NCBI GenBank assembly: GCA_004297215.1
Contig: SCUM01000001.1
Span: forward strand, 289,181-353,180
Length of the DNA: 64,000 nucleotides
DNA from: Patescibacteria group bacterium
GTDB taxonomy: Bacteria > Patescibacteriota > Patescibacteriia > UBA9934 > GWF2-40-263
Reading direction: 5' to 3'
This document shows, one piece after another, positions 9,461 through 63,414 of this stretch. How positions within the stretch are numbered: position 1 is the first letter of the stretch; each line of letters begins with the position of its first letter. The notes beneath the pieces are model-generated. The model searched no databases, was not told where the DNA came from, and was given only the letters and a program-made list of their open reading frames with translations. Position numbers and translations under genes: made by a program.

Positions 9461-9466
9461 GACTGG

Positions 9467-9538
9467 TGGGTCGGGTGGGGATCGAACCCACGACCTTGGG
9501 CTTAAAAGGCCCCTGCTCTACCATTGAGCTACCGACCC
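9467..9538 (-). tRNA. tRNA-Lys (anticodon UUU)
   Basis: Manual cloverleaf: acceptor GGGTCGG/CCGACCC, D-arm GCTC-AATGGTA-GAGC, anticodon loop CTTTTAA, T-arm GTGGG-TTCGATC-CCCAC. Confidence 0.8.
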
Positions 9539-19861: not shown

Positions 19862-19979
19862 CCTTCCGCCGCAGCCCCATCAGGAACGAGCCCCTTCGGC
19901 GCGGATGCGCCAGGGCGACCCCGACGAACGGTCGGGGTCATTTTTTACTAAACCCAGCCAAATTATTGCAAACCATCCC

Positions 19980-20008
19980 TTGACAAAACCTCAAAAATAT
20001 GGTATAAA
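19980..20008 (+). promoter_or_regulatory. Strong sigma70-type promoter TTGACA-N17-TATAAA (locus A), near-identical to the promoter at 57801
   Basis: -35 at 19980-19985 and -10 at 20003-20008. The 36-nt block is about 85% identical to 57801-57829. Confidence 0.65.
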
Positions 20009-20039
20009 TATCCACGTGAAGTGATCGTTCCTTCCAAGC

Positions 20040-20239
20040 GGAGTTCGAAGACCGCTACAACCTTAAGGGGGAGAGTCTAAAGAATGCCCGTGGCTGTTGT
20101 TGTCGTGAGTCCCCCTCACACACGACGGCAGCCACGGGCCTTTTTCGTAAAAGGCTCTAACGCGAACCCGCCGACGTCGTCGGCGGTGAAAACAACGTCA
20201 GAAAAACAGGCCGGGTCCCTTGACCCGGCATTGAGGTGA
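20040..20239 (+). promoter_or_regulatory. Conserved 5' leader (locus A): GGAGTTCGAAG motif, SD, ATG micro-ORF (MPVAVVVVSPPH..., 51 codons, 20084-20239), intrinsic terminator (hairpin GCCCGTGGCTG...CAGCCACGGGC plus CTTTTT, 20086-20145)
   Basis: Read directly from the sequence. The architecture parallels the leader at 57860-58102. Confidence 0.5.
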
Positions 20240-20242
20240 TTC

Positions 20243-21547
20243 TTGAAGAACCTGATCCTGATCGCGTCCATGCTTGCCTTCGCTGCCTGCGAGGGACGAA
20301 CGATTGAGACCCCGGCGACGACCGTCAACGCCACCTGCCCGGCCCTGCCGGAGCAGAACGACGACGCGCTCCTCGCCTGTCTCGAGACCATTAGCGAGAT
20401 GACGACCGCTGCGCAGGACGAGGAAAGCCTCGTCGCCTGCCTCGGGGACCTCGAGGCGGCGCTTGACCTCTGCGAAGAGGCTCCCGCGCCCGTCACGGTC
20501 GACGTGATCACGTGCCAGGCCAACAGCGCGGTCGTCGCGAGCGCAACCGATTGCCCTCGCGTCAACCTCGTCTGCGCGCCAGGCACCACGCCGTTTTCGA
20601 GTCCCGACACCGGCGAGTTCCGCTGCGATGAGCAGCATCTCACCATCGACATCGGGAACGGGACGCCGCAAGGCGACCTGGTGCTCCCTGGGACCGGCGT
20701 GGCCGACGTGGCGCACTTCCGCGTGACCAACCTCGGAACGGCGCCGGCTCCGCTCACGGGCGTCAAGCTCGAGAACGTAGCCCAGCAGCCGCTCGAGTCC
20801 GTCTACGTCGTCGACGTCATCCGTAACGGCGTCGGGACCTACGGGGTCTGCACCGGACGGATCGACCTGAATGACGGGAACGGCTGCCTGCGACCGCTCA
20901 CCGCGGTGACGGTCGGCACCAATGAGTCGGTCGACGTGGTGGTGCGGGTGGAGACGCCTGCAGCCGGCACGTGGCCCAACAACGACCGGTACGTGCAGAT
21001 GCGTCTCGTATCCGGCGAGCGTTCGGCCTACGGCAACTGGTTCCTGCTTGCAAACAGCAGGCTCACCGTGAGCAAGGCCAGCGGTTCCCCCTCGGGCGGC
21101 GCCGTTCCCGGGCTCATCGAAGTCGCGCAGATGAACTGGGCAGCGAACGCCCGCGGTGATATCTTCGGCCAACGCATGACGTTCGAGGTGGAAGCGACGG
21201 ACAACGCCGGCAGCGGCTGGATCGACGGCCTGATGAACCCTGCCAAGTGGCAGGTGTTCGACCGCGACGACTCTTCGGAGATGCTCGATACAAACGCCGG
21301 CTGGTCCTTCCAGAGCACGGTCGACGGGCTGGTCATCGCGTCGCTGGACTTCTACCAGAACGGCTCATTGGTCGTCGAACAAGGCAATACGAGGATGTTC
21401 GTCGTAAAAACGGATACGACGGGCGCCGGCGCGAACGACACGTTCAGGCTGACGCTCGTGGACGTCCAGTGGACCGACGGACATGTTTGGTCCGACGGCT
21501 TCTACGTGAACAACCTGCCGGTCGAGTTCGGACGGATCGACTTCTGA
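20243..21547 (+). CDS. Secreted lipoprotein, paralog 1 of a Cys-rich lipoprotein family (434 aa)
   Basis: TTG start with a GAGGTGA SD. Lipobox LAFAAC followed by EGR. Shares the N-terminal pattern and a C-terminal W-x-DG motif with the ORFs at 22232 and 60250. Confidence 0.65.
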   Translation: MKNLILIASMLAFAACEGRTIETPATTVNATCPALPEQNDDALLACLETISEMTTAAQDEESLVACLGDLEAALDLCEEAPAPVTVDVITCQANSAVVASATDCPRVNLVCAPGTTPFSSPDTGEFRCDEQHLTIDIGNGTPQGDLVLPGTGVADVAHFRVTNLGTAPAPLTGVKLENVAQQPLESVYVVDVIRNGVGTYGVCTGRIDLNDGNGCLRPLTAVTVGTNESVDVVVRVETPAAGTWPNNDRYVQMRLVSGERSAYGNWFLLANSRLTVSKASGSPSGGAVPGLIEVAQMNWAANARGDIFGQRMTFEVEATDNAGSGWIDGLMNPAKWQVFDRDDSSEMLDTNAGWSFQSTVDGLVIASLDFYQNGSLVVEQGNTRMFVVKTDTTGAGANDTFRLTLVDVQWTDGHVWSDGFYVNNLPVEFGRIDF

Positions 21548-21713
21548 CAACCCTGCGTCCGGGGCGGTGGAATCGAGAGGGTCTCCTCTCTTCCCCGCCT
21601 CGGCGCGAACACGTTCTGAAGATTCTGCGATTGCGGTCATGCGACCTCAGCCGCGGACCTTTCAGGATAGATAACCAGTGCCGGACTTCGAGCCGGCCAG
21701 TATGGAGGACGCC

Positions 21714-22067
21714 ATGACGTGGAAGAAGTTCGAAGGGAACGTGGTCGGGACCAGGGTCGAAGGCGATCCGTCGGTGCCGCCCACCAGGTGGTACAACCAC
21801 CTGTGGCTGCTGATGTTCGGATGGAAGAAGGTCGCCGTGTTCATGGCGATGAACGCTTCCGCCCCCGCCCGCGTGGGCTTCCGTCCCTTCAGGGGCGACG
21901 CGATGCTCCGCGAGGAACCGCTCGATCGTGGGACCTTCCGGGTCCGGATCGGCCACGAGGCGTGCACCTTCTTCGTCGTCGGCGACGATGGCAAGGAGAT
22001 CCCGCTGGAGCTCCTGAAGGTAACGACCCGGGACGATCCGGGCTACGACAAAGTCCCGCTCCTCTGA
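21714..22067 (+). CDS. Hypothetical protein (117 aa)
   Basis: GGAGGA-N4-ATG start and strong GC3 bias. The ORF also opens at GTG 21678. Confidence 0.4.
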   Translation: MTWKKFEGNVVGTRVEGDPSVPPTRWYNHLWLLMFGWKKVAVFMAMNASAPARVGFRPFRGDAMLREEPLDRGTFRVRIGHEACTFFVVGDDGKEIPLELLKVTTRDDPGYDKVPLL

Positions 22068-22231
22068 GGGGCGAGACGCTACGACGAGGGCGGAGGCAGG
22101 GTTCACTCCTTGCTTCCGCCTCTCCCCCAAGCGGATGAGCGCCACGCGCGTTCGTCCGCCTAGGCCGAGAAACAACCAGAATCCCCTCTGGCAATCCCGC
22201 CGGAGGTGACAATTGAACATAGGAGATACGA

Positions 22232-23251
22232 GTGAAGAACATCATCGCCCTGTTCGCGATCATCCTGGTCGGTTCGGCATGCGAAGGTCGCGTCGAAGTC
22301 GAGAAGATCGTTACGGAAGAGGTCGTCGTCTGGATCTGCACATGCAGCGACGGCACCGACACCGACTGCGATGCCCCGACCTGCGAAGGCGAGGTGATTC
22401 GCGAGACGGTCTGCGAAGCCGACGGTGAGTTGGTCGACGACCAGAGCGAGTGCCCGGAGCCACCGACTCTCGAGTGCGCGCAGGACTCCGATTGCGGAGG
22501 CGTCGGGACCGGATGCAGCGAAACCAACTTCGTGACCACGAACGCCTTGTGCACGGCAGAAGGATTCTGCGACCGGTTCGTGACCGACGTCGATCCCGAG
22601 AGCGAAGCCTGCGGGTTCGTCGGCGAAGGTGAAGGAGAGGGGGAAGGCGAAGGCGAAATGGTCGCGGCACCGATTCTGGTGAGTGATGACTGGTCGACAA
22701 GATCAGGAGACGACACTGCCCTATTCAGGTTTCGTCTGACACCGCCGTCAGACCATGCGATTAGCCTGTACCGAATCGCGTTCCGTATCGATAATCCGTT
22801 TCCAACGGAGACGTTCTGGAACGGGTGCGACCAACTCGCAAACCGATCCCGCTGGAGCACGCATATCGGGCCTGTCCCAGTGGATGGGACCGGTTGGGTA
22901 GTAGGCCAAGATCCCGTTGGGTACTGGGAGTTCTACTATTCGGGCGGCGGCGACCTTGGGATCTGCACGGGGAATGCGCCGCTCCGGTACGCCGTACTGA
23001 CCCTTCCGCACGACTTCGGCATCCCTGGGCGCGACATCCCTCCTGGGATGGACTACGAGGAAACGGTCTACGTGGACCTGACGGGAATCGTCGGCGGCGA
23101 ATGGGTTCAGTTGGGTCTCCCGTCCGACAGTGAGCTTGCTTCGCTTGGGATTGCCACCATCGAGTGGTATGACCGAGAGACGGGAGCGTTGCACCGATCT
23201 GACGAAGAGGCCGAGGGTCTTCCGCTCATCGGGACAGTCACGACCTTCTGA
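22232..23251 (+). CDS. Secreted lipoprotein, paralog 2 (339 aa) with a Cys-rich region and a GEGEGEGEGEGE linker
   Basis: GTG start with a GGAGA SD. Lipobox LVGSAC followed by EGR. Eleven Cys residues lie in the first 130 aa. Confidence 0.65.
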   Translation: MKNIIALFAIILVGSACEGRVEVEKIVTEEVVVWICTCSDGTDTDCDAPTCEGEVIRETVCEADGELVDDQSECPEPPTLECAQDSDCGGVGTGCSETNFVTTNALCTAEGFCDRFVTDVDPESEACGFVGEGEGEGEGEGEMVAAPILVSDDWSTRSGDDTALFRFRLTPPSDHAISLYRIAFRIDNPFPTETFWNGCDQLANRSRWSTHIGPVPVDGTGWVVGQDPVGYWEFYYSGGGDLGICTGNAPLRYAVLTLPHDFGIPGRDIPPGMDYEETVYVDLTGIVGGEWVQLGLPSDSELASLGIATIEWYDRETGALHRSDEEAEGLPLIGTVTTF

Positions 23252-49218: not shown

Positions 49219-49283
49219 ACGTGAAAATCGTATCACGGCGCGGCGGGAAGCGAAAAATCCCGCTTGAACGAGCGGGATTTTGG

Positions 49284-49354
49284 CAGGGACGGTGGGAATC
49301 GAACCCACGTCAGAGGTTTTGGAGACCTCCGTCCTACCATTGAACGACGTCCCT
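49284..49354 (-). tRNA. tRNA-Trp (anticodon CCA)
   Basis: Manual fold: acceptor AGGGACG/CGTCCCT, anticodon stem GAGGT/ACCTC with loop CTCCAAA, T-arm GTGGG-TTCGATT-CCCAC. Confidence 0.75.
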
Positions 49355-49371
49355 ACGCCGCGGCAGTATGT

Positions 49372-49400
49372 CAAAAACCCGCCCTCTTGTGAAGGGCGGG
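49372..49400 (-). terminator. Rho-independent terminator after rpmG
   Basis: On the minus strand, CCCGCCC-TTCACAAGA-GGGCGGG followed by TTTTT. Confidence 0.6.
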
Positions 49401-49410
49401 GTCTTGATGC

Positions 49411-49566
49411 TTACTTGGTCTCCTTGTGCGGCTGGTGGGCGCGGCAGCCTTTGCAGAACTTCGAAAGCTCCAGGCGCTCCTTGAGCGTCTTCTTGTTCTT
49501 GTGGCTCTGGTAATTGACCGTCTTGCACTGCGTGCACTCCAGCTTGATGAGGAAATCTTGGGACAT
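49411..49566 (-). CDS. rpmG: 50S ribosomal protein L33
   Basis: Hand translation gives MSQDFLIKLECTQCKTVNYQSHKNKKTLKERLELSKFCKGCRAHQPHKETK, which carries the L33 CxxC...CxxC zinc-ribbon and KNKK...ERLEL.K signature. It is under 60 aa, so absent from the ORF track. Confidence 0.8.
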   Translation of the reverse strand: MSQDFLIKLECTQCKTVNYQSHKNKKTLKERLELSKFCKGCRAHQPHKETK

Positions 49567-49623
49567 AATTGGCAATCTGATTGGTCGGAACCTTACGGAA
49601 AAACGCGATTCGTGTCAAGGGAG

Positions 49624-49699
49624 TGGAGCCGTTGACCGGGATTGAACCGGTGACCTCATCCTTACCATGGATGTGCTCTACCAACTGAGCTACAACGGC
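49624..49699 (-). tRNA. tRNA-Thr (anticodon GGU), CCA encoded
   Basis: GCCGTTG-TA-GCTCAGTTGGTAGAGC-A-CATCC-ATGGTAA-GGATG-AGGTC-ACCGG-TTCAATC-CCGGT-CAACGGC-T-CCA. Confidence 0.85.
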
Positions 49700-49790
49700 A
49701 TATTTCTTCTACCAAGTCCGACGCCCTGATGGGGTCGGACCCCCGACCTGCGCCGCAGCGCAGCGTCGGGGCTGAGCTACAACGGCGTGT
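49700..49790 (-). pseudogene. tRNA-Thr 5' fragment (acceptor plus D-arm, 25 nt, identical to tRNA-Thr GGU) interrupted in the D-loop by a structured 57-nt insert; non-functional tRNA-like element
   Basis: Minus strand reads GCCGTTGTAGCTCAG[CCCCGACGCTGCGCTGCGGCGCAGGTCGGGGGTCCGACCCCATCAGGGCGTCGGAC]TTGGTAGAagaaatat and is immediately followed by the intact tRNA-Thr(GGU). Confidence 0.5.
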
Positions 49791-49837
49791 TTTTATCGCG
49801 ATGGCCCCGCCAGCCGAAGCCCCTCAAGGGCGAAGGC

Positions 49838-49912
49838 TGGAGCCGCCTGTCGGATTTGAACCGACGACCTGCTGTTTACAAAACAGCTGCTCTACCCCTG
49901 AGCTAAGGCGGC
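49838..49912 (-). tRNA. tRNA-Thr (anticodon UGU), CCA encoded
   Basis: GCCGCCT-TA-GCTCAGGGGTAGAGC-A-GCTGT-TTTGTAA-ACAGC-AGGTC-GTCGG-TTCAAAT-CCGAC-AGGCGGC-T-CCA. Confidence 0.8.
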
Positions 49913-49913
49913 G

Positions 49914-50150
49914 TTATTCAAGCTTCCAAGTCCCATCCATAAGCTTTTCCTTCTTTATCCTCGACCAGCCCTTAATCTGACGTTCTCTTCTTCTTGCACA
50001 CAGGAGGATCTTGTGGATCTCGTAGTATACGAGACGGACGGGAAGCCGTTTTGCCGTCCATAAAGCGGCCCTGCCCGCACGATGATCTTCCATCCTTCGC
50101 AGAAGATTTTCAGAACAACCTACATAATAACTGCCATCGCCACATTCCAA
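49914..50150 (-). CDS. GIY-YIG nuclease-domain protein (YhbQ/UPF0213-like)
   Basis: VYMLECGDGSYYVGCSENLLRRMEDHRAG...LVYYE follows the GIY-YIG pattern. The start (GTG or ATG near 50150) is uncertain; the ORF track extends to 50246. Confidence 0.55.
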   Translation of the reverse strand: MECGDGSYYVGCSENLLRRMEDHRAGRAALWTAKRLPVRLVYYEIHKILLCARRRERQIKGWSRIKKEKLMDGTWKLE

Positions 50151-50167
50151 CATGTACACGACGACGC

Positions 50168-50301
50168 GCCCTTCGACAAGCTCAAGGCATTCGACTCCTT
50201 TCCTGTTCCCTACGGAAGCGTTTTGCGTCGTATGGTCGCAGACCATGAGCGATCGTCTACCACGGACTCACTGCCCTTCGACAAGCTCAGGGCATTCGAC
50301 T
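50168..50301. repeat. Two 29-nt direct repeats GCCCTTCGACAAGCTCA(A/G)GGCATTCGACT, 105 nt apart, between the GIY-YIG gene and tRNA-Tyr
   Basis: Copies at 50168-50196 and 50273-50301, identical except for one position. Confidence 0.7.
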
Positions 50302-50330
50302 ACCACATAAACGGCACGAAGGTAGTCGAA

Positions 50331-50416
50331 TGGTGGGTGGAGAAGGGTTCGAACCTTCGAAGGCGTGAGCCAGGAGATTTACAGTCTCCCCCGTTTGACC
50401 ACTTCGGTATCCACCC
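50331..50416 (-). tRNA. tRNA-Tyr (anticodon GUA), long variable arm, CCA encoded
   Basis: GGGTGGA-TA-CCG-AAGTGGTCAAA-CGG-G-GGAGA-CTGTAAA-TCTCC-TGGCTCACGCCTTC-GAAGG-TTCGAAC-CCTTC-TCCACCC-A-CCA. Confidence 0.8.
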
Positions 50417-55048: not shown

Positions 55049-55603
55049 TCACACCGTCATGATTTCCTCTTCCTTCTTCGCGCCGATCGCATCGGCCTCG
55101 GCCACGAAATCCTTGGTGGCCTTGTCGAGCTCGTCGAGGATCTTGAACTTCTCGTCTTCCGACACGCTCTCCTCCTTGCTGCTCTTCATCACCTCCTCGC
55201 GCGCGGCCTCGCGCACCTGGCGCAGCGACACGCGGGCGTTCTCGAGGCGCTCCTTCATGTTCTTCACGAGGCTCCGGCGGTTTTCCTCGGTCATGGGCGG
55301 AAGGTTCAGTCGCACGCGCTGCCCGTCCACGGCCGGATTGACCCCGATGTCGGCGTCACGGACCCCCTTCTCGATCGCCATGAGCAATGACTTGTCCCAC
55401 GGCTCGATGAGGAGCGTCTTGGCGTCGGACACGGTGATGGAGGCGACGCTCTTCAAATCCATCGCGCTGTCGTACGCCATCACCACCACGTTCTCCACCA
55501 TGGCCGGGTTGGCCCGTCCGGTGCGAAGCGAAGACAGCTCCTTTTGGAGGTGCTCGATGACCGCCCGGAAGGCGGCGTTCTTTTGGCCTACGAATGGATG
55601 CAT
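55049..55603 (-). CDS. frr: Ribosome recycling factor
   Basis: RTGRANPAMVENVVVMAYDS...LNLPPMTEENR, the canonical RRF sequence; 184 aa. Confidence 0.9.
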   Translation of the reverse strand: MHPFVGQKNAAFRAVIEHLQKELSSLRTGRANPAMVENVVVMAYDSAMDLKSVASITVSDAKTLLIEPWDKSLLMAIEKGVRDADIGVNPAVDGQRVRLNLPPMTEENRRSLVKNMKERLENARVSLRQVREAAREEVMKSSKEESVSEDEKFKILDELDKATKDFVAEADAIGAKKEEEIMTV

Positions 55604-55655: not shown

Positions 55656-56738
55656 TTATTTTTTCACTTCGGCGGCGCCGGCGAGATAGAGGACCGAGGC
55701 GTTTTTCGGGTCGAGCGTGAGGAGCTGCGGGATGCGGGCGGTGGGAAGCGGGTCGGTGGCCCAGGTCACCCCGTCGTCGGTGCTCGCATAGAAGGTGCCG
55801 GCGGCCGCATACCAGAGGCGGGACGAGGCCGCGGGATCCATGGCAAGCGCCCTGATGCTCGTCTGGCCCGGAGAGGTGAGGAGCTTGATCCCCTCCCAGG
55901 TGGCGCCGAAATCGCGCGATCGGATGAGGCCGTAGCCCGTGGCGGCCACCACCGTGCCGGAATCCTTGTCCTGCACGAGAGCGGCAACCTTAGTCGCATT
56001 CCGGAAATCCTTCAACTCCTTGGTGACCTGGGTCCAGGCCTTGCCGGCGTCGAGCGTGCGGAAGAATCCGGCCCCGTCGGTCCCGATGAGCATCTGGCGG
56101 CTGTCGGCGCGGCTGAGCATGATCTGCGTGACGGCGGACTTCGTGGAAACCGACGTGCGCCAGCTCTTCCCCTTGTCCGTGCTCTGCAGCACGTCGCCGT
56201 TGCTCAGCCCGATCCACACCACGTTCGGGTTATACCAATCGACGACCAAGGCGGTCACCGACACCTTGGCGCGCGGTTCCACGTACGCCTGGTCATCTAC
56301 GCTCCGCAGGCAGTCCACGGACTTGAGCACGCGGTTCCCGCGCGCCACGTACACCGTGCACGCGTCCTTGGGATCCACGGCCACGTCCACGATCGCGCCG
56401 GCGCGCAGGCTTTCGGCATGCGCCTGGCGCCATGAAGCCGTGCCGTCCTCGCTCAAGAACAGCCCGTTCTCGCGGGTTCCCGCATACGCGACGGACGGGT
56501 CCTGCGGGTCGAAGGTGAGAACGGTGACGTTCGTGCCGGCCATGGTGCCGACCCCTTTGGGACCCGGGACGGCCACGGCCTGGGCCCAGGTCTTTCCCGT
56601 ATTCTCGGAACGCCACAGGCCGCCGTCCGGACCTTTGGCCGGGGTTTTGGGGCCGCCAAGGCCCGGGATGCTGCAGCCGGCGCCTATGAGCGCAAGGGAG
56701 ACGAGCGGGAGAAGCAGGCGCGTACGCATACTGGGCAT
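55656..56738 (-). CDS. Lipoprotein with BNR/Ycf48-like beta-propeller repeats
   Basis: Lipobox LIGAGC. Repeated S.D.G.TW / GxxW motifs. Confidence 0.55.
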   Translation of the reverse strand: MPSMRTRLLLPLVSLALIGAGCSIPGLGGPKTPAKGPDGGLWRSENTGKTWAQAVAVPGPKGVGTMAGTNVTVLTFDPQDPSVAYAGTRENGLFLSEDGTASWRQAHAESLRAGAIVDVAVDPKDACTVYVARGNRVLKSVDCLRSVDDQAYVEPRAKVSVTALVVDWYNPNVVWIGLSNGDVLQSTDKGKSWRTSVSTKSAVTQIMLSRADSRQMLIGTDGAGFFRTLDAGKAWTQVTKELKDFRNATKVAALVQDKDSGTVVAATGYGLIRSRDFGATWEGIKLLTSPGQTSIRALAMDPAASSRLWYAAAGTFYASTDDGVTWATDPLPTARIPQLLTLDPKNASVLYLAGAAEVKK

Positions 56739-56805: not shown

Positions 56806-57714
56806 TCACAGACTTATCAAGAGATGTTCGAGGGCGAGTTGGGGACTGGCGTTATGCAGGATCCCGCTGCGCGCCTCAGCGAGCCGCCGGAGGGAGCGCG
56901 TAAGGCGCAAGGCGGCGGGCGCGTCGCGCACGCTTCCGAGCATGCGCTCGCGCAACGCGCGTTCCCACGCGTCGAGCGTGCAGAGCGCGACGAGCGCCTT
57001 GTTGGCTTCGTCCTTTGGCATGAGCTCCGCGGCCGCTCGCAGGCGCCGGGCGATCGGAGCAGCCATGAGGTCGCGCACGGCGGCGCTCGCGACGTCTTCC
57101 TGCGCGCGATATTCGCCGTCGGTGAGCAGGCGGATCGCGACGCCCGGCGCGCCATGCGAACGGGCGGCGAGATGCGCCGCTTCCTCATGATCGAGCCCGC
57201 GACGGACGAGCGCCTCGGCGATCGCGGGTTCGGGGACGGCATGGAACCGGACGACCTGGCAACGCGACGCGATCGTCGCCGGCACGTCGTCCGCGCTCGG
57301 GGCGCGCAGCATGATGAGCGCGTTCCCTTTCGGTTCCTCAAGCGTCTTCAGGAGCGCGTTCGCGGCCGCGGCGTTCATCCGGTCGGCCTCCTCGATGAAC
57401 ATCGCCTTGCGCCCGGAAAGGCTCGTGAGGGAAAACCGCTCGCACGCTTCGCGCACCTGTTCCACGGAGATAGCCGATTTCTCCTTGCCCGTCTTCTCAT
57501 CCGTTTCCCGTCGGACGAAGACGGCGTCCGGATGCGTCTCCACGGATCCTTCGCCCATGACCGCATTCAGAAGGGTGAGCGCGACGGTCGTCTTCCCCAC
57601 GCGTGCCGGACCGACGAACAGGAAGGCGTGTGCCATCCGACCGCTGCCATGCATGCGGAAAAGCGCCTCACAGACGAGCGTATGGCCGATAATTCGGGAA
57701 AACGGCAAAGCCAT
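56806..57714 (-). CDS. holB: DNA polymerase III delta-prime subunit (AAA+ clamp-loader)
   Basis: HAFLFVGPARVGKTT Walker-A-like motif and SRC-motif region with the ...EEAD.. box. Confidence 0.75.
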   Translation of the reverse strand: MALPFSRIIGHTLVCEALFRMHGSGRMAHAFLFVGPARVGKTTVALTLLNAVMGEGSVETHPDAVFVRRETDEKTGKEKSAISVEQVREACERFSLTSLSGRKAMFIEEADRMNAAAANALLKTLEEPKGNALIMLRAPSADDVPATIASRCQVVRFHAVPEPAIAEALVRRGLDHEEAAHLAARSHGAPGVAIRLLTDGEYRAQEDVASAAVRDLMAAPIARRLRAAAELMPKDEANKALVALCTLDAWERALRERMLGSVRDAPAALRLTRSLRRLAEARSGILHNASPQLALEHLLISL

Positions 57715-57800
57715 AATGGCGCAAGTATATCATAGGCAAGGTTCCTTGACTCGGTTTCTTTAAACGCAGCTTAGATTAGCCAATATTTTGACGTTTCCCC

Positions 57801-57829
57801 TTGACAAAACCCCTAAAATATGATATAAA
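57801..57829 (+). promoter_or_regulatory. Strong sigma70-type promoter TTGACA-N17-TATAAA (locus B), near-identical to the promoter at 19980
   Basis: -35 at 57801-57806 and -10 at 57824-57829. Confidence 0.65.
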
Positions 57830-57859
57830 TCTTCTCGTACTCTGATCCTTGGATAACTG

Positions 57860-58102
57860 GCGGAAACGCCATTGGGGAGTTCGAAGGCCCTAAATATCCA
57901 TGAATTCAGAGGAGTGAGTATCTCAATGACAGGCGAACAGCCGGTTGTTGGCGTACTTCACGTACTCCCGCAACCGGTTGTTTGTTTTCTTGCCCACCGA
58001 AGCTCATCAGAGCGAAGGAGGGTTGTACCCGGAAATCTGGAGGAGAGAGTCCCCCGCCGAAGCCCGCAAGGGCGACAGTGGGTCGGATGCCTAATGCCAT
58101 GA
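57860..58102 (+). promoter_or_regulatory. Conserved 5' leader (locus B): GGAGTTCGAAG motif, SD AGAGGAG, ATG micro-ORF (MTGEQPVVGVLHVLPQPVV..., 57926-58102), intrinsic terminator (GCCGGTTG...CAACCGGTTG plus TTTGTTTTCTT, about 57940-57991)
   Basis: Read directly from the sequence. Homologous to the locus A leader at 20040-20239. Confidence 0.5.
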
Positions 58103-58230
58103 CTCGGTCTTGTACTGACTCATGTCATACCCCTGGCATCCATGGGCCACACCAGTCGCAAGGCAGGTCACTGGCCCCCGACCCTCCAGATTCCCGGGTG
58201 CAACTTCAACCAGCACCCGTAGGAGGCAGC

Positions 58231-58428
58231 ATGACGCGAATCAATTATGGAGACGACGACGTCCGGATCTTCGTCGACAGCGCGGAGGGCAACGCCGTCC
58301 TCATCGACCTGACCCCGCAGGAGAGGGAGGACGCGATCAGGTTCAACAACCTCCCGCCCGACCTCACCGACGTGGACCTGTCCGCGTTCGTGGACGAGCT
58401 GTTCGACGGCGTCGGCAGCACGAAGTAG
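58231..58428 (+). CDS. Hypothetical small acidic protein (65 aa)
   Basis: AGGAGG-N5-ATG start and GC3-biased codons. Confidence 0.5.
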   Translation: MTRINYGDDDVRIFVDSAEGNAVLIDLTPQEREDAIRFNNLPPDLTDVDLSAFVDELFDGVGSTK

Positions 58429-58580
58429 GCAACGCCCTACAAACGCTCGCCTCTGTCGTGAGACAGGGGCCCAGCAAGGAACCGATGAGACGGATCTCGT
58501 CGTTTGCTTGGTGAATAAGCGACGGAAGTCGCTAAAAGCCATAGCGGGAATGAACCCCCGCACCCAACAACGAGAATCAC

Positions 58581-59039
58581 GTGAACGCACCTCTCCCGAA
58601 TCAGTCCCTCCACAACCTCGACGCCGCGATCGACGCCATCCCCGACACCGACAAGAAGGTGCGCCGCATCAACATCGACCAGCATGGCGTCCAACCGCTC
58701 GAGGTCGTCGCGCTGCTGAAGCGCCTCGTGGCGATCTCGGAGCACATGACGCCCGAGCACGACGCGGAGTTCCGCGCGCTCATGGCGCCGATGGTGATGG
58801 CGAAGTACGCGCGCTTCAACGAGGCGATCCGCGACATCGGCTACGTCGCCACGTGCACGCTCAAACAGCCGGCCATCGGCATCAACGAGGACTACAGCCT
58901 CGAGGACGGCCGGACCGTGGCGCTGCGCCTGCTCGTCGCGGCGCAGTCCAAGGGCGACGTGAAGATCCTCGACGAGGTCTTCAAGACCCTGCTGAAGCAC
59001 GACCTCGTCAGCGTGAGCGACCTCAAGAAGAAGCGCTAG
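58581..59039 (+). CDS. Hypothetical protein (152 aa)
   Basis: GTG start, weak SD, and a consistent GC3 bias. Confidence 0.4.
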   Translation: MNAPLPNQSLHNLDAAIDAIPDTDKKVRRINIDQHGVQPLEVVALLKRLVAISEHMTPEHDAEFRALMAPMVMAKYARFNEAIRDIGYVATCTLKQPAIGINEDYSLEDGRTVALRLLVAAQSKGDVKILDEVFKTLLKHDLVSVSDLKKKR

Positions 59040-60024: not shown

Positions 60025-60249
60025 CCGCCAAAGACACGCATCGTGGCCCCTGCACCCTTCCGACGCCTGTCGGATCGGTGCGGGGCCACGAAAGAAAACT
60101 CCGCCATTCATCCTTGCCTTGGTACGCGCCTTCTGGCACGGACTAAGGTGAGGACGACGGGCGGAGTTTTCGTTTGTCCGACCGTTGACAGACGGCGGAT
60201 TTTTTGATACGCTCGGCACCACTCTTTCACAACTGAAACGAGGAGAAAG

Positions 60250-62036: not shown

Positions 62037-62047
62037 ATTCCAAATTT

Positions 62048-62085
62048 CAAAAGGCCCAGGCAGCGATGCCATGGGCCCTTTCTTC
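62048..62085. terminator. Second, bidirectional terminator hairpin
   Basis: AAAA-GGCCCA-GGCAGCGATGCCA-TGGGCC-CTTTCTTC. Confidence 0.5.
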
Positions 62086-62640
62086 ATCAGGCTACAGCCT
62101 GATGGACTCTCTCCTCTTCCTCCAAACCCGCCATTGCCCTTCGAGAGCGCCGGTGGGTCTTTTTACTCTCTCCCCTTCGTTTCGGGGATATGCCCCTAAC
62201 GGTTCCCTGGAGTTCCAGAGGAACCCAGAAGGCTATCCCTTTCTCCCAAATCTGTCAATCCCTCCATCCCCTTCGGCCCCTTCTCCCCCTTAAATCCCTT
62301 ATAACCCTTCCGTTTCCCTGTCATTCCCCCTTGACACCCCTTAGGAAACCTGATAGCTTGGTCGGTCGTCGAAGCAGGCGTGCAGGCGACCGCCAACCTG
62401 TCGAAAGATGGCGTCTACGCAGGACAAAAAGATGGATCGAGTCAAATCGCAACGGGCGCAAAGCGCGCACAGGCCTGTCCCGTACCCACGGGAACCCCCA
62501 TTGCCGACGGGCCGCAGGTGCCCCACGCCCATCTCCTGTCCGGGAGAAGGCGGCTGCTGAAGACTCCGTTCATCGACGACGACTGCGACGACGCACGACA
62601 CGCCCTCCACAGCTCATCAGAGCGACGGAGGGTCTTTTAT

Positions 62641-63414
62641 TTACACCTTCAGGACGGGGTATTCCGATGCCCCGGCCCAGGCCAGGTCGAACATGATGCG
62701 GATGGCGTCGGCGATCTCCTTGCTCACGATGACGATGGAAAGCGGCGCGGACTTGAAATTCACCAGGAACACGTGGCTGCCGCGTACGGTGATCTCGGCG
62801 TGAAGCGGGAATTTCTCCGGCGGGAGGTAGCGCACTTCCCCGTTCTTCACGCGCGGCAGGCGTTCCGCCGCGCCGGGAGACGTCACCAGCAGGGCGCGAT
62901 GGAACGCTCCCTGGGCCTCCACTTCCGCGACATGTTCCGGTCGCGTCTTCATGATCGTCGGGTTGGCTTCCACGTCGTCGAGCGGGACGATCTGCACGTA
63001 CTCGCCCTTGAGCGACAGGAACACCTCGCGCATGGTCGCCTTCCCTTCCACTCCTTCGAGATAGCGGATCTGCGGCTTGGCCCCCTCCACGTTGAACAGG
63101 CCGAGCAGCGTAGGCAGCACCTTCTCGAACTCGAGCTCCTTCTCCTCGATCTCCCGGCGCTCCATGCGCAGGATGCTGCGCAGGCGATCCGGCGATTCGG
63201 GGACGAAAAAGCGCTTCTTGCCGCGCACGAAGGTGCTCATGAGGCCTCGCCCCGCGAGCGATTCGATCATCACGTACGTGGTGGCGCGGTTCACCTTGGA
63301 CTTGTGCGCGATGTCCTGCACCGGCGCGGGCCCGAGCTCGAGGGACGCGGCATAGACCGCGGCCTCCTTCTCCGACAGGCCAAGGTGCATCAGTTCGCGG
63401 AGGACTTCGTCCAT
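62641..63414 (-). CDS. TrmB-family transcriptional regulator
   Basis: N-terminal wHTH LRELMHLGLSEKEAAVYAASLELGPAPVQDIAHKSKVNRATTYVMIESL (TrmB N-domain signature), followed by a coiled coil and a C-terminal domain; 257 aa. Confidence 0.75.
   Translation of the reverse strand: MDEVLRELMHLGLSEKEAAVYAASLELGPAPVQDIAHKSKVNRATTYVMIESLAGRGLMSTFVRGKKRFFVPESPDRLRSILRMERREIEEKELEFEKVLPTLLGLFNVEGAKPQIRYLEGVEGKATMREVFLSLKGEYVQIVPLDDVEANPTIMKTRPEHVAEVEAQGAFHRALLVTSPGAAERLPRVKNGEVRYLPPEKFPLHAEITVRGSHVFLVNFKSAPLSIVIVSKEIADAIRIMFDLAWAGASEYPVLKV

Follow-up and report, generated by a model that had tools for sequence, protein, structure and literature searches.

A candidate composite leader of uncatalogued structured RNAs at the head of a variable gene island in Patescibacteria

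Introduction

Why should a bacterial promoter be followed, before the first gene is reached, by a leader with its own terminator and then by another tract of strongly folded RNA? The question is raised by locus B, which occupies positions 57795-58230 of a 64,000-nucleotide (nt) stretch from a Patescibacteria group bacterium (NCBI GenBank assembly GCA_004297215.1, contig SCUM01000001.1, positions 289,181 to 353,180 of the forward strand). This whole stretch is called the window below, and all coordinates refer to it unless a related locus is named. A preliminary description of the sequence regarded locus B as the second copy of a promoter-leader-terminator module that also stands at locus A, extended by a structured 5′ untranslated region (5′UTR), furnished with a small open reading frame (ORF), and placed ahead of one of two paralogous gene sets under common control. 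The Patescibacteria, or candidate phyla radiation (CPR), are ultrasmall and mostly uncultured episymbionts. Our literature search found almost nothing on gene regulation in these organisms, and no regulatory RNA specific to them.

Here we describe locus B as the conserved head of a lineage-specific, fast-evolving island that lies between holB and a TrmB-family gene in Uhrbacteria-like Patescibacteria. What stands there is probably a composite leader of uncatalogued RNA families, so far restricted to these organisms, in which a terminator-ended leader (element 1) precedes a four-way-junction RNA (element 2). Together with a third small RNA at the far end of the island, these make three RNA elements absent from Rfam 15, located at the most variable island in an otherwise conserved neighbourhood.

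Results

From upstream of the promoter to the first start codon, locus B contains the following features.

57769-57790, plus strand: operator-like imperfect palindrome with an AT-rich box (GCTTAGATTAGC CAATATTTTG), upstream of the -35 hexamer, as read from the sequence
57801-57830, plus strand: sigma-70-type promoter, with -35 TTGACA at 57801-57806, a 17-nt spacer and an extended -10 TGATATAAA at 57821-57829
57836-57991, plus strand: element 1, a leader RNA of ~150 nt (fold -64.5 kcal/mol, z = -4.72), made up of a 5′ three-way domain, a hairpin at 57874-57890 with the loop AGUUCGAAGG, a purine box GAGGAGUGAGU at 57909-57919, an A-tract, a terminator hairpin at 57940-57977 and a U-tract at 57978-57991
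58025-58201, plus strand: element 2, a four-way-junction RNA of ~175 nt (single-sequence z = -5.4), with a closing helix P1 in which 58025-58043 pairs with 58083-58201 (inner part GGAGG/CCUCC), the joining segment J1/2 AGAGAGUC at 58044-58051, and the hairpins P2, P3 (AAUG...CAUAC, with an invariant G-U/G-C pair) and P4 (ACCAG...CAGGUCACUG)
58195-58233, plus strand: possible expression platform, with a hairpin CGGGUGC...GCACCCG at 58195-58219, a Shine-Dalgarno (SD) sequence GGAGG at 58222-58226 and an ATG at 58231

The GC-rich tract that had been pointed out behind the terminator was recovered at 58037-58078, where it forms the 5′ third of the folded domain 58025-58201. It had been taken as part of a ~240-nt structured 5′UTR extending the upstream element, but it belongs instead to a separate RNA: element 2 is missing at locus A, where R1, a covariance model of element 2 built from ten sequences, found no copy, and among relatives there are copies that lack element 1, tandem copies, intercistronic copies and one copy that stands directly before terminators. 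The relatives were collected by a pattern scan of one genome per species, which detected the arrangement in L002, a bin of Uhrbacteria, and in L003, a Patescibacteria bin of lower GC, and further examples were added from a metagenome scan and from contigs with holB homologs. On the window copy, R1 scored 173 bits on the plus strand versus 40 bits on the minus strand. It detected 17 strong plus-strand instances in 15 loci at 65-177 bits, with reverse-strand echoes of at most 45 bits, and two further instances in L122 bring the number beyond the window to 19. All 15 distinct related neighbourhoods that were fetched have element 2, with one or two copies per locus. There was no match in about 0.8 Mb of unrelated control loci. 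Of 94 stretches that a pattern scan of viral contigs had returned, the 80 scanned with R1 gave no match, were taken as chance and served as negative controls. Three further candidates from the genome and metagenome scans (L001, L005, L010) were rejected as chance matches.

The structure of element 2 is supported by covariation. In an alignment of 17 sequences, pairing holds in 92.6% of cells, where shuffled alignments reach 72.2%; compensatory changes mark 41 of the 51 pairs, where shuffling gives 23.6; and the covariation score is 0.551, compared with 0.188 for shuffled alignments (none of 500 reached it) and 0.06-0.11 for slid controls, this alignment having been fitted to the R1 model, which favours the structure; an independent earlier run with MAFFT and RNAalifold had given compensatory changes at 33 of 51 pairs. 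Covariation support of this kind is as strong as that of accepted RNA families. Coding potential was not apparent: eight of the 17 copies have stops in all three frames, and there is no frame that stays open throughout all 17.

In the consensus, P1 is a closing helix of 17-19 base pairs (bp) whose inner part is nearly always GGAGG/CCUCC; it is followed by a single-stranded AGAGAGU, the hairpin P2, a long P3 with the near-invariant AAUG...CAUAC, and a P4 that takes two forms, and some genomes add an extra hairpin. The invariant positions are GGAGAGAG, AAUG, GG...CU and CAUAC. That GGAGG/CCUCC is nearly invariant amid freely covarying P1 pairs is consistent with a constraint beyond pairing. Nineteen of 20 instances lie upstream of ORFs and are co-oriented with them. 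Element 2 shares with riboswitches a conserved covarying domain with invariant junction and loop nucleotides in leader position. No terminator stands behind it in the window or in close relatives. In L109 and L115 it comes right after the promoter, without element 1, and three islands have two copies each, all on the minus strand.

L122, 8756-8956 and 9528-9710, minus strand: element 2 copies, each ahead of an ORF and both in one transcription unit, one of them intercistronic
L119, 1043-1214 and 3418-3600, minus strand: element 2 copies
L107, 367-547 and 4469-4664, minus strand: element 2 copies

Near-perfect hairpins of ~140 nt flank element 2 in L113 (3177-3320), L119 (1218-1362) and L117 (just downstream of 2833); some of these long hairpins hold short repeats such as GGGACAAAGG and receive weak microRNA-like Rfam scores.

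Element 1 was modelled separately. Its covariance model R2, whose training set included both window copies, gave only two matches in the window, at 127.8 bits (57836-57987) and 88.4 bits (20015-20145). Among the six closest sequences, the hairpin and terminator keep their pairing in 94.4% of cells, with compensatory changes at 10 of 21 pairs and a covariation score that none of 500 shuffles reached. Fourteen genomes have in common a 5′ hairpin domain, the box GGRGAGAGAGU, optional extra hairpins, and a terminator of A-tract, hairpin and U-tract, in which the hairpin and 4-6 U are kept with compensatory changes. The window's clade has an invariant 10-nt loop AGUUCGAAGR in the element 1 hairpin, and other clades retain a YCGAAG loop. 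In the window, both copies end in an intrinsic terminator, with UUGUUUGUUUUCUU after the hairpin at 57940-57977 and CUUUUUCGU after that at 20086-20139; a simple terminator scan misses both, its loop limit of 3-8 nt being set against their irregular apex. By eye, the 5′ arm of the terminator, GCCGGUUGUUGG, seems better conserved than the 3′ arm. In relatives, element 2 follows element 1 at a distance of 5-45 nt, for example about 15 nt in L002.

In most genomes the purine box could pair with CUCUC/CUCCC at the tip of the terminator hairpin, its apex, with a mean z of -1.56 over 14 related sequences against dinucleotide shuffles and individual significance in four. This partial complementarity is all that was found when a full antiterminator was sought in element 1. 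An H-type pseudoknot, with an ACAA:UUGU stem and a box:CUCUC stem, was considered and rejected because its first stem is missing in the window's clade, which leaves only the weak pairing of box and apex.

Both loci begin with the same promoter. A 33-nt block, CCCTTGACAAAACCYCWAAAATATGRTATAAAT, with the layout CCCTTGACAAAACC..AAAATATG.TATAAAT, is present exactly twice, at 19977-20009 and 57798-57830, where the copies agree at 30 of 33 positions, and none of 100 shuffles produced a match. Read by eye, TTGACA, 17 nt and TATAAA give 11 of 12 matches to the sigma-70 consensus at both loci, with a TGn extension; an automatic promoter scan calls neither site, since it demands T at the last -10 position, which is A here. 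Transcription at locus B would start at about 57836-57837. The same TTGACAA...TGnTATAnT precedes the RNA in L002, L003, L009, L105, L106, L111, L113, L117, L119 and L122. Relatives also show clearer palindromes at the position of the operator-like sequence (GGCTGAATTCAGCC in L105 and L106, GCTAAAATTAGC in L009, TTAGCTAATCTAAGC in L113 and TTGGCTAATTCTAGCC in L119), and locus A has only a half-site, at 19952-19969. The palindrome is a candidate transcription-factor site, possibly for the TrmB-family protein encoded at the island's other end.

19977-20148, plus strand: promoter and element 1 of locus A, without element 2; -35 at 19980-19985, -10 at 20003-20008
20038-20055, plus strand: hairpin of locus A
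20067-20077, plus strand: purine box of locus A
20086-20148, plus strand: terminator of locus A

The GGAGTTCGAAG hairpin, the purine box and the terminator, whose hairpin contains GTTGTTG and is followed by a U-tract (57940-57991 and 20086-20148), come in the same order after the promoter at 19977-20148 and 57798-57991, and the window has just two exact matches to GGAGTTCGAAGRCC, at 20040 and 57876. The locus A leader folds better than shuffled sequence (z = -4.35). The near-identical promoters and the common order of parts reported in the preliminary description are thus borne out, and its claim that the whole promoter-leader-terminator module is duplicated stands. The refuting outcomes that it had named did not arise: the similarity extends well beyond the promoter hexamers, with both copies found by R2, the structure covaries, and neither tract falls in a family known to Rfam.

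The further claim of two paralogous gene sets fared less well. The lipoproteins of the two loci are weakly similar in pairwise comparison (E = 8e-05 and 9e-07), but locus A has nothing that corresponds to the three genes with which locus B begins. The locus A genes, which encode lipoproteins of 434 and 339 amino acids (aa) and a 129-aa protein, have homologs within the single holB-side island of L002 and L106. Since their homologs sit inside that one island, locus A looks like a split-off portion of an ancestral island that has retained the promoter and element 1 only, and the gene sets are, judged from sequence, better described as one island split in two. For this comparison the locus A region 20243-23251 was set against L002 231-3744 and L106 3162-3521; its lipoproteins have Cys-rich N-termini and GEGEGE linkers, and the 129-aa protein, marked by WKKFEG, is the best-conserved island protein, at 46-53% identity. 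The shared, signal-responsive control that had been proposed for the two loci is plausible.

At the junction of element 2 with the first ORF, the 5′ arm of the hairpin 58195-58219 overlaps the 3′ strand of P1. By eye, a hairpin with different arm sequences stands in the equal position after element 2 in five close relatives. In four of the close relatives (L002, L009, L105, L106) the SD lies 20-25 nt past P1 and an acidic ORF begins ~10 nt after it. When the tail was folded without the 5′ strand of P1, CCUCC (58083-58087) paired with the SD around the hairpin in the window, L002 and L105; the same folding gave no CCUCC:SD pairing in L009 and L106.

The purine box GGRGAGAGAGU is common to element 1, element 2 and a third, convergent small RNA, which lies between the gene of a 576-aa lipoprotein and the TrmB-family gene.

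62045-62226, minus strand: third small RNA gene, with boxes at 62165-62175 and 62106-62116, a hairpin CAUCAGGCUGUAGCCUGAUG, its own terminator, and a promoter with TTGACA at 62258-62253

The third RNA is kept, with two boxes each, in L105 (1914-2100) and L106 (2998-3146), and its hairpins are retained with some compensatory changes. ORFs that share 'GYAP' at these loci are spurious, being the translation of that RNA. A factor that recognises the box, shared by the RNAs and titratable by the two-box small RNA, is a speculative proposal; tblastn searches for CsrA and Hfq found neither in the 202 kb of sequence searched.

None of these RNAs could be given a known identity. A gathering-threshold scan of the window with Rfam 15 (4227 models) returned only tRNAs. 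At E <= 10 for both loci, and E <= 1 for seven homologous loci, the only hits were noise (SNORD43, F6 and hairpins of microRNA type) that scored far short of the gathering thresholds, and element 1 of locus B itself had no match at E <= 10. ARAGORN found no transfer-messenger RNA (tmRNA), one-piece or permuted, in the window, and a literature search yielded no description of element 1, element 2 or the third RNA. The signal recognition particle (SRP) RNA, RNase P RNA and 6S RNA had been suggested by 'CAGGUCA', 'GGAGGAGAGAGUCC' (compared with the 'GAGGAAAGUCC' that RNase P carries) and the long closing stem; they were rejected because their size, topology and copy number do not fit, their signature motifs are missing and no model matched. 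6S RNA in particular is usually single-copy and has a large central bubble, whereas the consensus here has three hairpins on a four-way junction, L107, L119 and L122 have two copies each, and no Rfam 6S match was obtained. A tRNA-like cloverleaf and a Y RNA do not fit the junction spacings. A hairpin ribozyme was also dismissed: the resemblance of AGAGAGUCAACC in L009, L106 and L007 to the hairpin-ribozyme strand AGAGAAGUCAACCAG is short and of low complexity, is missing in the window copy and has no Rfam match behind it.

Discussion

We consider it about evenly probable that the head of locus B is a composite cis-acting leader in which conditional termination is combined with a structured 5′UTR. 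In such a leader, the near-consensus sigma-70 promoter behind the operator-like palindrome would drive strong transcription, and element 1 would fold, end in its intrinsic terminator and act as an attenuator, with terminated transcripts accumulating as a small RNA of ~150 nt. The GGRGAGAG box would probably control termination through its complementarity to CUCUC/CUCCC in the terminator apex, to which the pairing statistics lend slight support. Because the gap of 5-45 nt leaves no room for a promoter of its own, element 2 and the genes behind it would be expressed only by read-through, and element 1 would therefore have to be a conditional terminator. Read-through transcripts would carry element 2, which may bind a ligand or a protein partner. 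In the window's clade, where P1 lies 20-25 nt upstream of the first ORF, CCUCC would then have two possible partners: within P1, which would leave the ribosome-binding site open, or at the SD GGAGG, which would be hidden. Given the high stability of P1, a switch would depend on a factor bound to the 5′ strand of P1 or to the box beside it, and a factor occupying either would switch translation. The neighbouring two-box small RNA might, speculatively, titrate the factor that recognises the box.

For this account speak the common order of parts at the two loci, the conserved structure and terminator of element 1, the covariation, strand specificity and leader position of element 2, the near-invariance of GGAGG/CCUCC, which fits a double constraint, the CCUCC:SD fold in three of five close relatives, the third RNA kept with two boxes in three genomes, and the locus A homologs inside the single island of relatives. 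Several points weigh against it. The z-scores of the alternative CCUCC:SD fold are not significant. The SD-proximal layout is limited to the window's clade, the first ORF of other clades lying 100-260 nt downstream behind long hairpins. P1, at 17-19 bp, is far more stable than the helix that would hide the SD and longer than typical riboswitch switching helices, and a long stem of this type is what one would sooner expect in a stable non-coding RNA or a substrate of RNase III. Directly behind the L107 copy at 367-547 stand two intrinsic terminators and no ORF. The complementarity of box and apex is modest and was measured among 14 phylogenetically related sequences, which makes it a lead, not a result, and the box is not enriched in the window, with three matches against 2.4 expected. 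The start, termination and read-through of transcription are all deduced from the sequence. The genes downstream vary by clade and have no known function, and for that reason the gene context suggests no ligand.

Known regulatory RNAs resemble the two elements in part. Element 1 is like the terminator-ended leaders of riboswitches and attenuators in its strong promoter, conserved fold, canonical terminator right before the genes and expected discrete product of ~150 nt; the SAM riboswitch-derived SreA and SreB of Listeria are terminator-ended leaders that double as small RNAs. It is unlike them in that it belongs to no aptamer class in Rfam, has no clear antiterminator and shares its purine box with two other island RNAs. 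Element 2 is like the 5′UTRs that sequester an SD, as riboswitches of the SAM-II, SAM-III and preQ1 types do, in having a multi-helix core closed by P1 and a 3′ strand CCUCC complementary to the SD, which yields two exclusive pairings; it departs from them in the length of P1, in an SD layout found in one clade, and in its orphan and lipoprotein genes in place of metabolic or transport genes. Riboswitches of the c-di-GMP-I (GEMM) class have a two-hairpin fold and precede diverse surface-related genes and genes of unknown function, sometimes in tandem. Element 2 matches them in this logic of gene context only, for its fold is a four-way junction and Rfam finds no match in sequence or structure. 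The box recalls the CsrB/RsmZ RNAs and CsrA-bound leaders, where a purine motif containing GGA adjoins or overlaps an SD-like sequence in leaders and is repeated within a separate small RNA. The differences are that the small RNA here has only two boxes, where the Csr/Rsm sponges have many GGA motifs in hairpin loops, that GGRGAGAGAGU stands against the consensus A(N)GGA, and that no CsrA was found within 202 kb. Finally, element 2 is comparable to 6S and Y RNAs in size, long closing stem, strong promoter and position beside the replication gene holB, but it differs from 6S, SRP, RNase P, tmRNA and Y RNAs in its four-way junction in place of a central bubble or hairpin, in its one or two copies per island and in its lack of signature motifs.

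This last likeness leads to the most serious competitor of a cis-acting leader, which we regard as unlikely, though far from negligible: both elements could be independent, stable, trans-acting RNAs, element 1 as a small RNA gene and element 2 excised at P1, for instance by RNase III, as a ribonucleoprotein scaffold or regulator, with the ORFs merely co-transcribed as ygfA is with the E. coli 6S RNA. A canonical strong terminator after element 1 would suit this, as would a P1 that resembles the closing stems of stable RNAs, downstream genes that change between clades, the L107 copy with terminators only behind it, and a third box-bearing small RNA with its own promoter and terminator. Yet element 2 lacks a promoter of its own at most loci and a terminator behind it in the window and close relatives, it stands in one or two copies per island ahead of an ORF and always co-oriented, including the intercistronic copy of L122, and in close relatives the SD that follows it by 20-25 nt can pair with CCUCC in three of five. 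Improbable, in our estimate, is a catalytic or polymerase-modifying element 2, either a new ribozyme that would cut itself and so process the polycistronic transcript of the island, or an RNA of processive antitermination, like EAR of B. subtilis and put of phage HK022, that would let RNA polymerase read through the island's terminator-like hairpins. The few invariant unpaired nucleotides (GAGAG, AAUG, CAUAC) and the G-U/G-C pair within freely varying stems, the gain of whole hairpins and replacement of P4, the several copies per island in leader and intercistronic positions, and terminator-like hairpins within the island (58483-58502 and 60170-60195) speak in its favour; against it, no ribozyme, EAR or put model of Rfam matches even at E <= 10, the sequence yields no cleavage site or polymerase contact, and the likeness of AGAGAGUCAACC to AGAGAAGUCAACCAG has the weaknesses given above.

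A leader-peptide attenuator built on the micro-ORF of the preliminary description, in which terminator formation would depend on ribosomes translating a short frame (MTGEQPVVGV...), with the valine codons GUU GUU in the terminator's 5′ arm, is very improbable. It draws on an SD-like box 9-13 nt before an AUG at both window loci, L003, L009 and L105, and before a UUG in L106, and on the conserved GCCGGUUGUUGG, which reads K/Q-P-V-V-G in frame in close relatives. But the start codon is not conserved: the AUG after the box is found in the window's clade and L003, L002 has AAG in its place, and L007 and L107 have no start codon though box and terminator are kept. Nor is the frame that of a micro-ORF, for the ATG at 57926 opens 58 codons, not 19, that run to 58102 into element 2 without a stop before or within the terminator, and the locus A frame would run for 52 codons. 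Where the box recurs, in element 2 and the third RNA, no start codon comes after it, the P-V-V-G similarity follows trivially from a conserved base-paired stem with compensatory changes, and the downstream genes are not amino-acid biosynthesis genes. Leader-peptide attenuation of the trp or ilv type is thus unlikely because the short ORF is not conserved and the likeness of the peptides is that of a stem arm. At locus A, the frame opens with AUG at 20084 and passes through the terminator to a TGA at 20238-20240, so that 2 nt separate it from the lipoprotein gene, which starts with TTG at 20243; the frame is probably open by chance, the sequence being rich in GC, but it would permit translational coupling.

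That the two loci are merely a recent segmental duplication of a promoter and its flank, folding as any GC-rich sequence does, has next to no credibility. It would explain why there are only two copies in the window, and high-GC sequence does fold readily, but the copies have diverged (88 against 128 bits) while keeping hairpin and terminator through compensatory changes, both elements are conserved across genomes spanning 46% to 70% GC, shuffled and slid controls fall far below the observed values, and the unrelated control loci gave no matches. Covariation and conservation across genomes already contradict duplication alone.

If element 2 senses a ligand or protein, it would offer a first handle on the control of surface proteins in these organisms, and possibly a native regulatory part for the genetic tools under development in Patescibacteria; even on a conservative view, the RNAs are new families that can be searched for across CPR genomes. 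A bolder proposal, which we find rather doubtful, is that element 2 represents a ribozyme, or the sensor domain of a riboswitch class, not described before (the riboswitch perhaps responding to a second messenger or to a metabolite from the host) and forms, with element 1 and the two-box small RNA, a CPR-specific 'GGAGAGAG-box' circuit that switches a hypervariable island of surface and secreted proteins. Such a circuit would govern the genes most likely to mediate the attachment of the episymbionts to their hosts.

Gene neighbourhood

The nearest public relatives of the window are metagenome bins of Candidatus Uhrbacteria and other Patescibacteria, and most of the related contigs that were fetched keep the gene order TrmB / variable island / holB / BNR protein / frr / tRNA synthetase. 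The genes flanking locus B and those of its island are as follows.

55049-55603, minus strand: frr, ribosome recycling factor, flanking locus B
55656-56738, minus strand: BNR-repeat lipoprotein, flanking locus B
56806-57714, minus strand: holB, DNA polymerase III delta′, flanking locus B
58231-58428, plus strand: island ORF 1, a 65-aa acidic protein without known family, from the ORF list
58581-59039, plus strand: island ORF 2, 152 aa
59053-60024, plus strand: island ORF 3, up to 323 aa
60250-61980, plus strand: island ORF 4, a 576-aa lipoprotein
62641-63414, minus strand: TrmB-family regulator gene, at the other end of the locus B island

The island proteins had no match in Pfam, PHROG, NCBIfam or PADLOC, and in a search of the PDB with the three ORFs downstream of the 65-aa ORF, the best match had E = 0.3. 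The place of the 65-aa ORF is taken by a different acidic ORF of 57-63 aa in L002, L009, L105 and L106, and the clade of L107, L111 and L113 has a common ORF of 114-141 aa, 100-260 nt downstream of element 2 and behind long hairpins. On the plus strand, the island itself has terminator-like hairpins with U-runs, one behind the 65-aa ORF (58483-58502) and one ahead of the gene of the 576-aa lipoprotein (60170-60205); they matter if element 2 affects read-through. Elsewhere in the window, the five tRNAs that are the only matches of Rfam and ARAGORN comprise a cluster on the minus strand at 49281-50416 (Trp, Thr-GGU, Thr-UGU and Tyr) and a tRNA-Lys at 9464-9538, also on the minus strand. The GC content of the window is 60-72%, except for one tRNA-rich kilobase at 56%.

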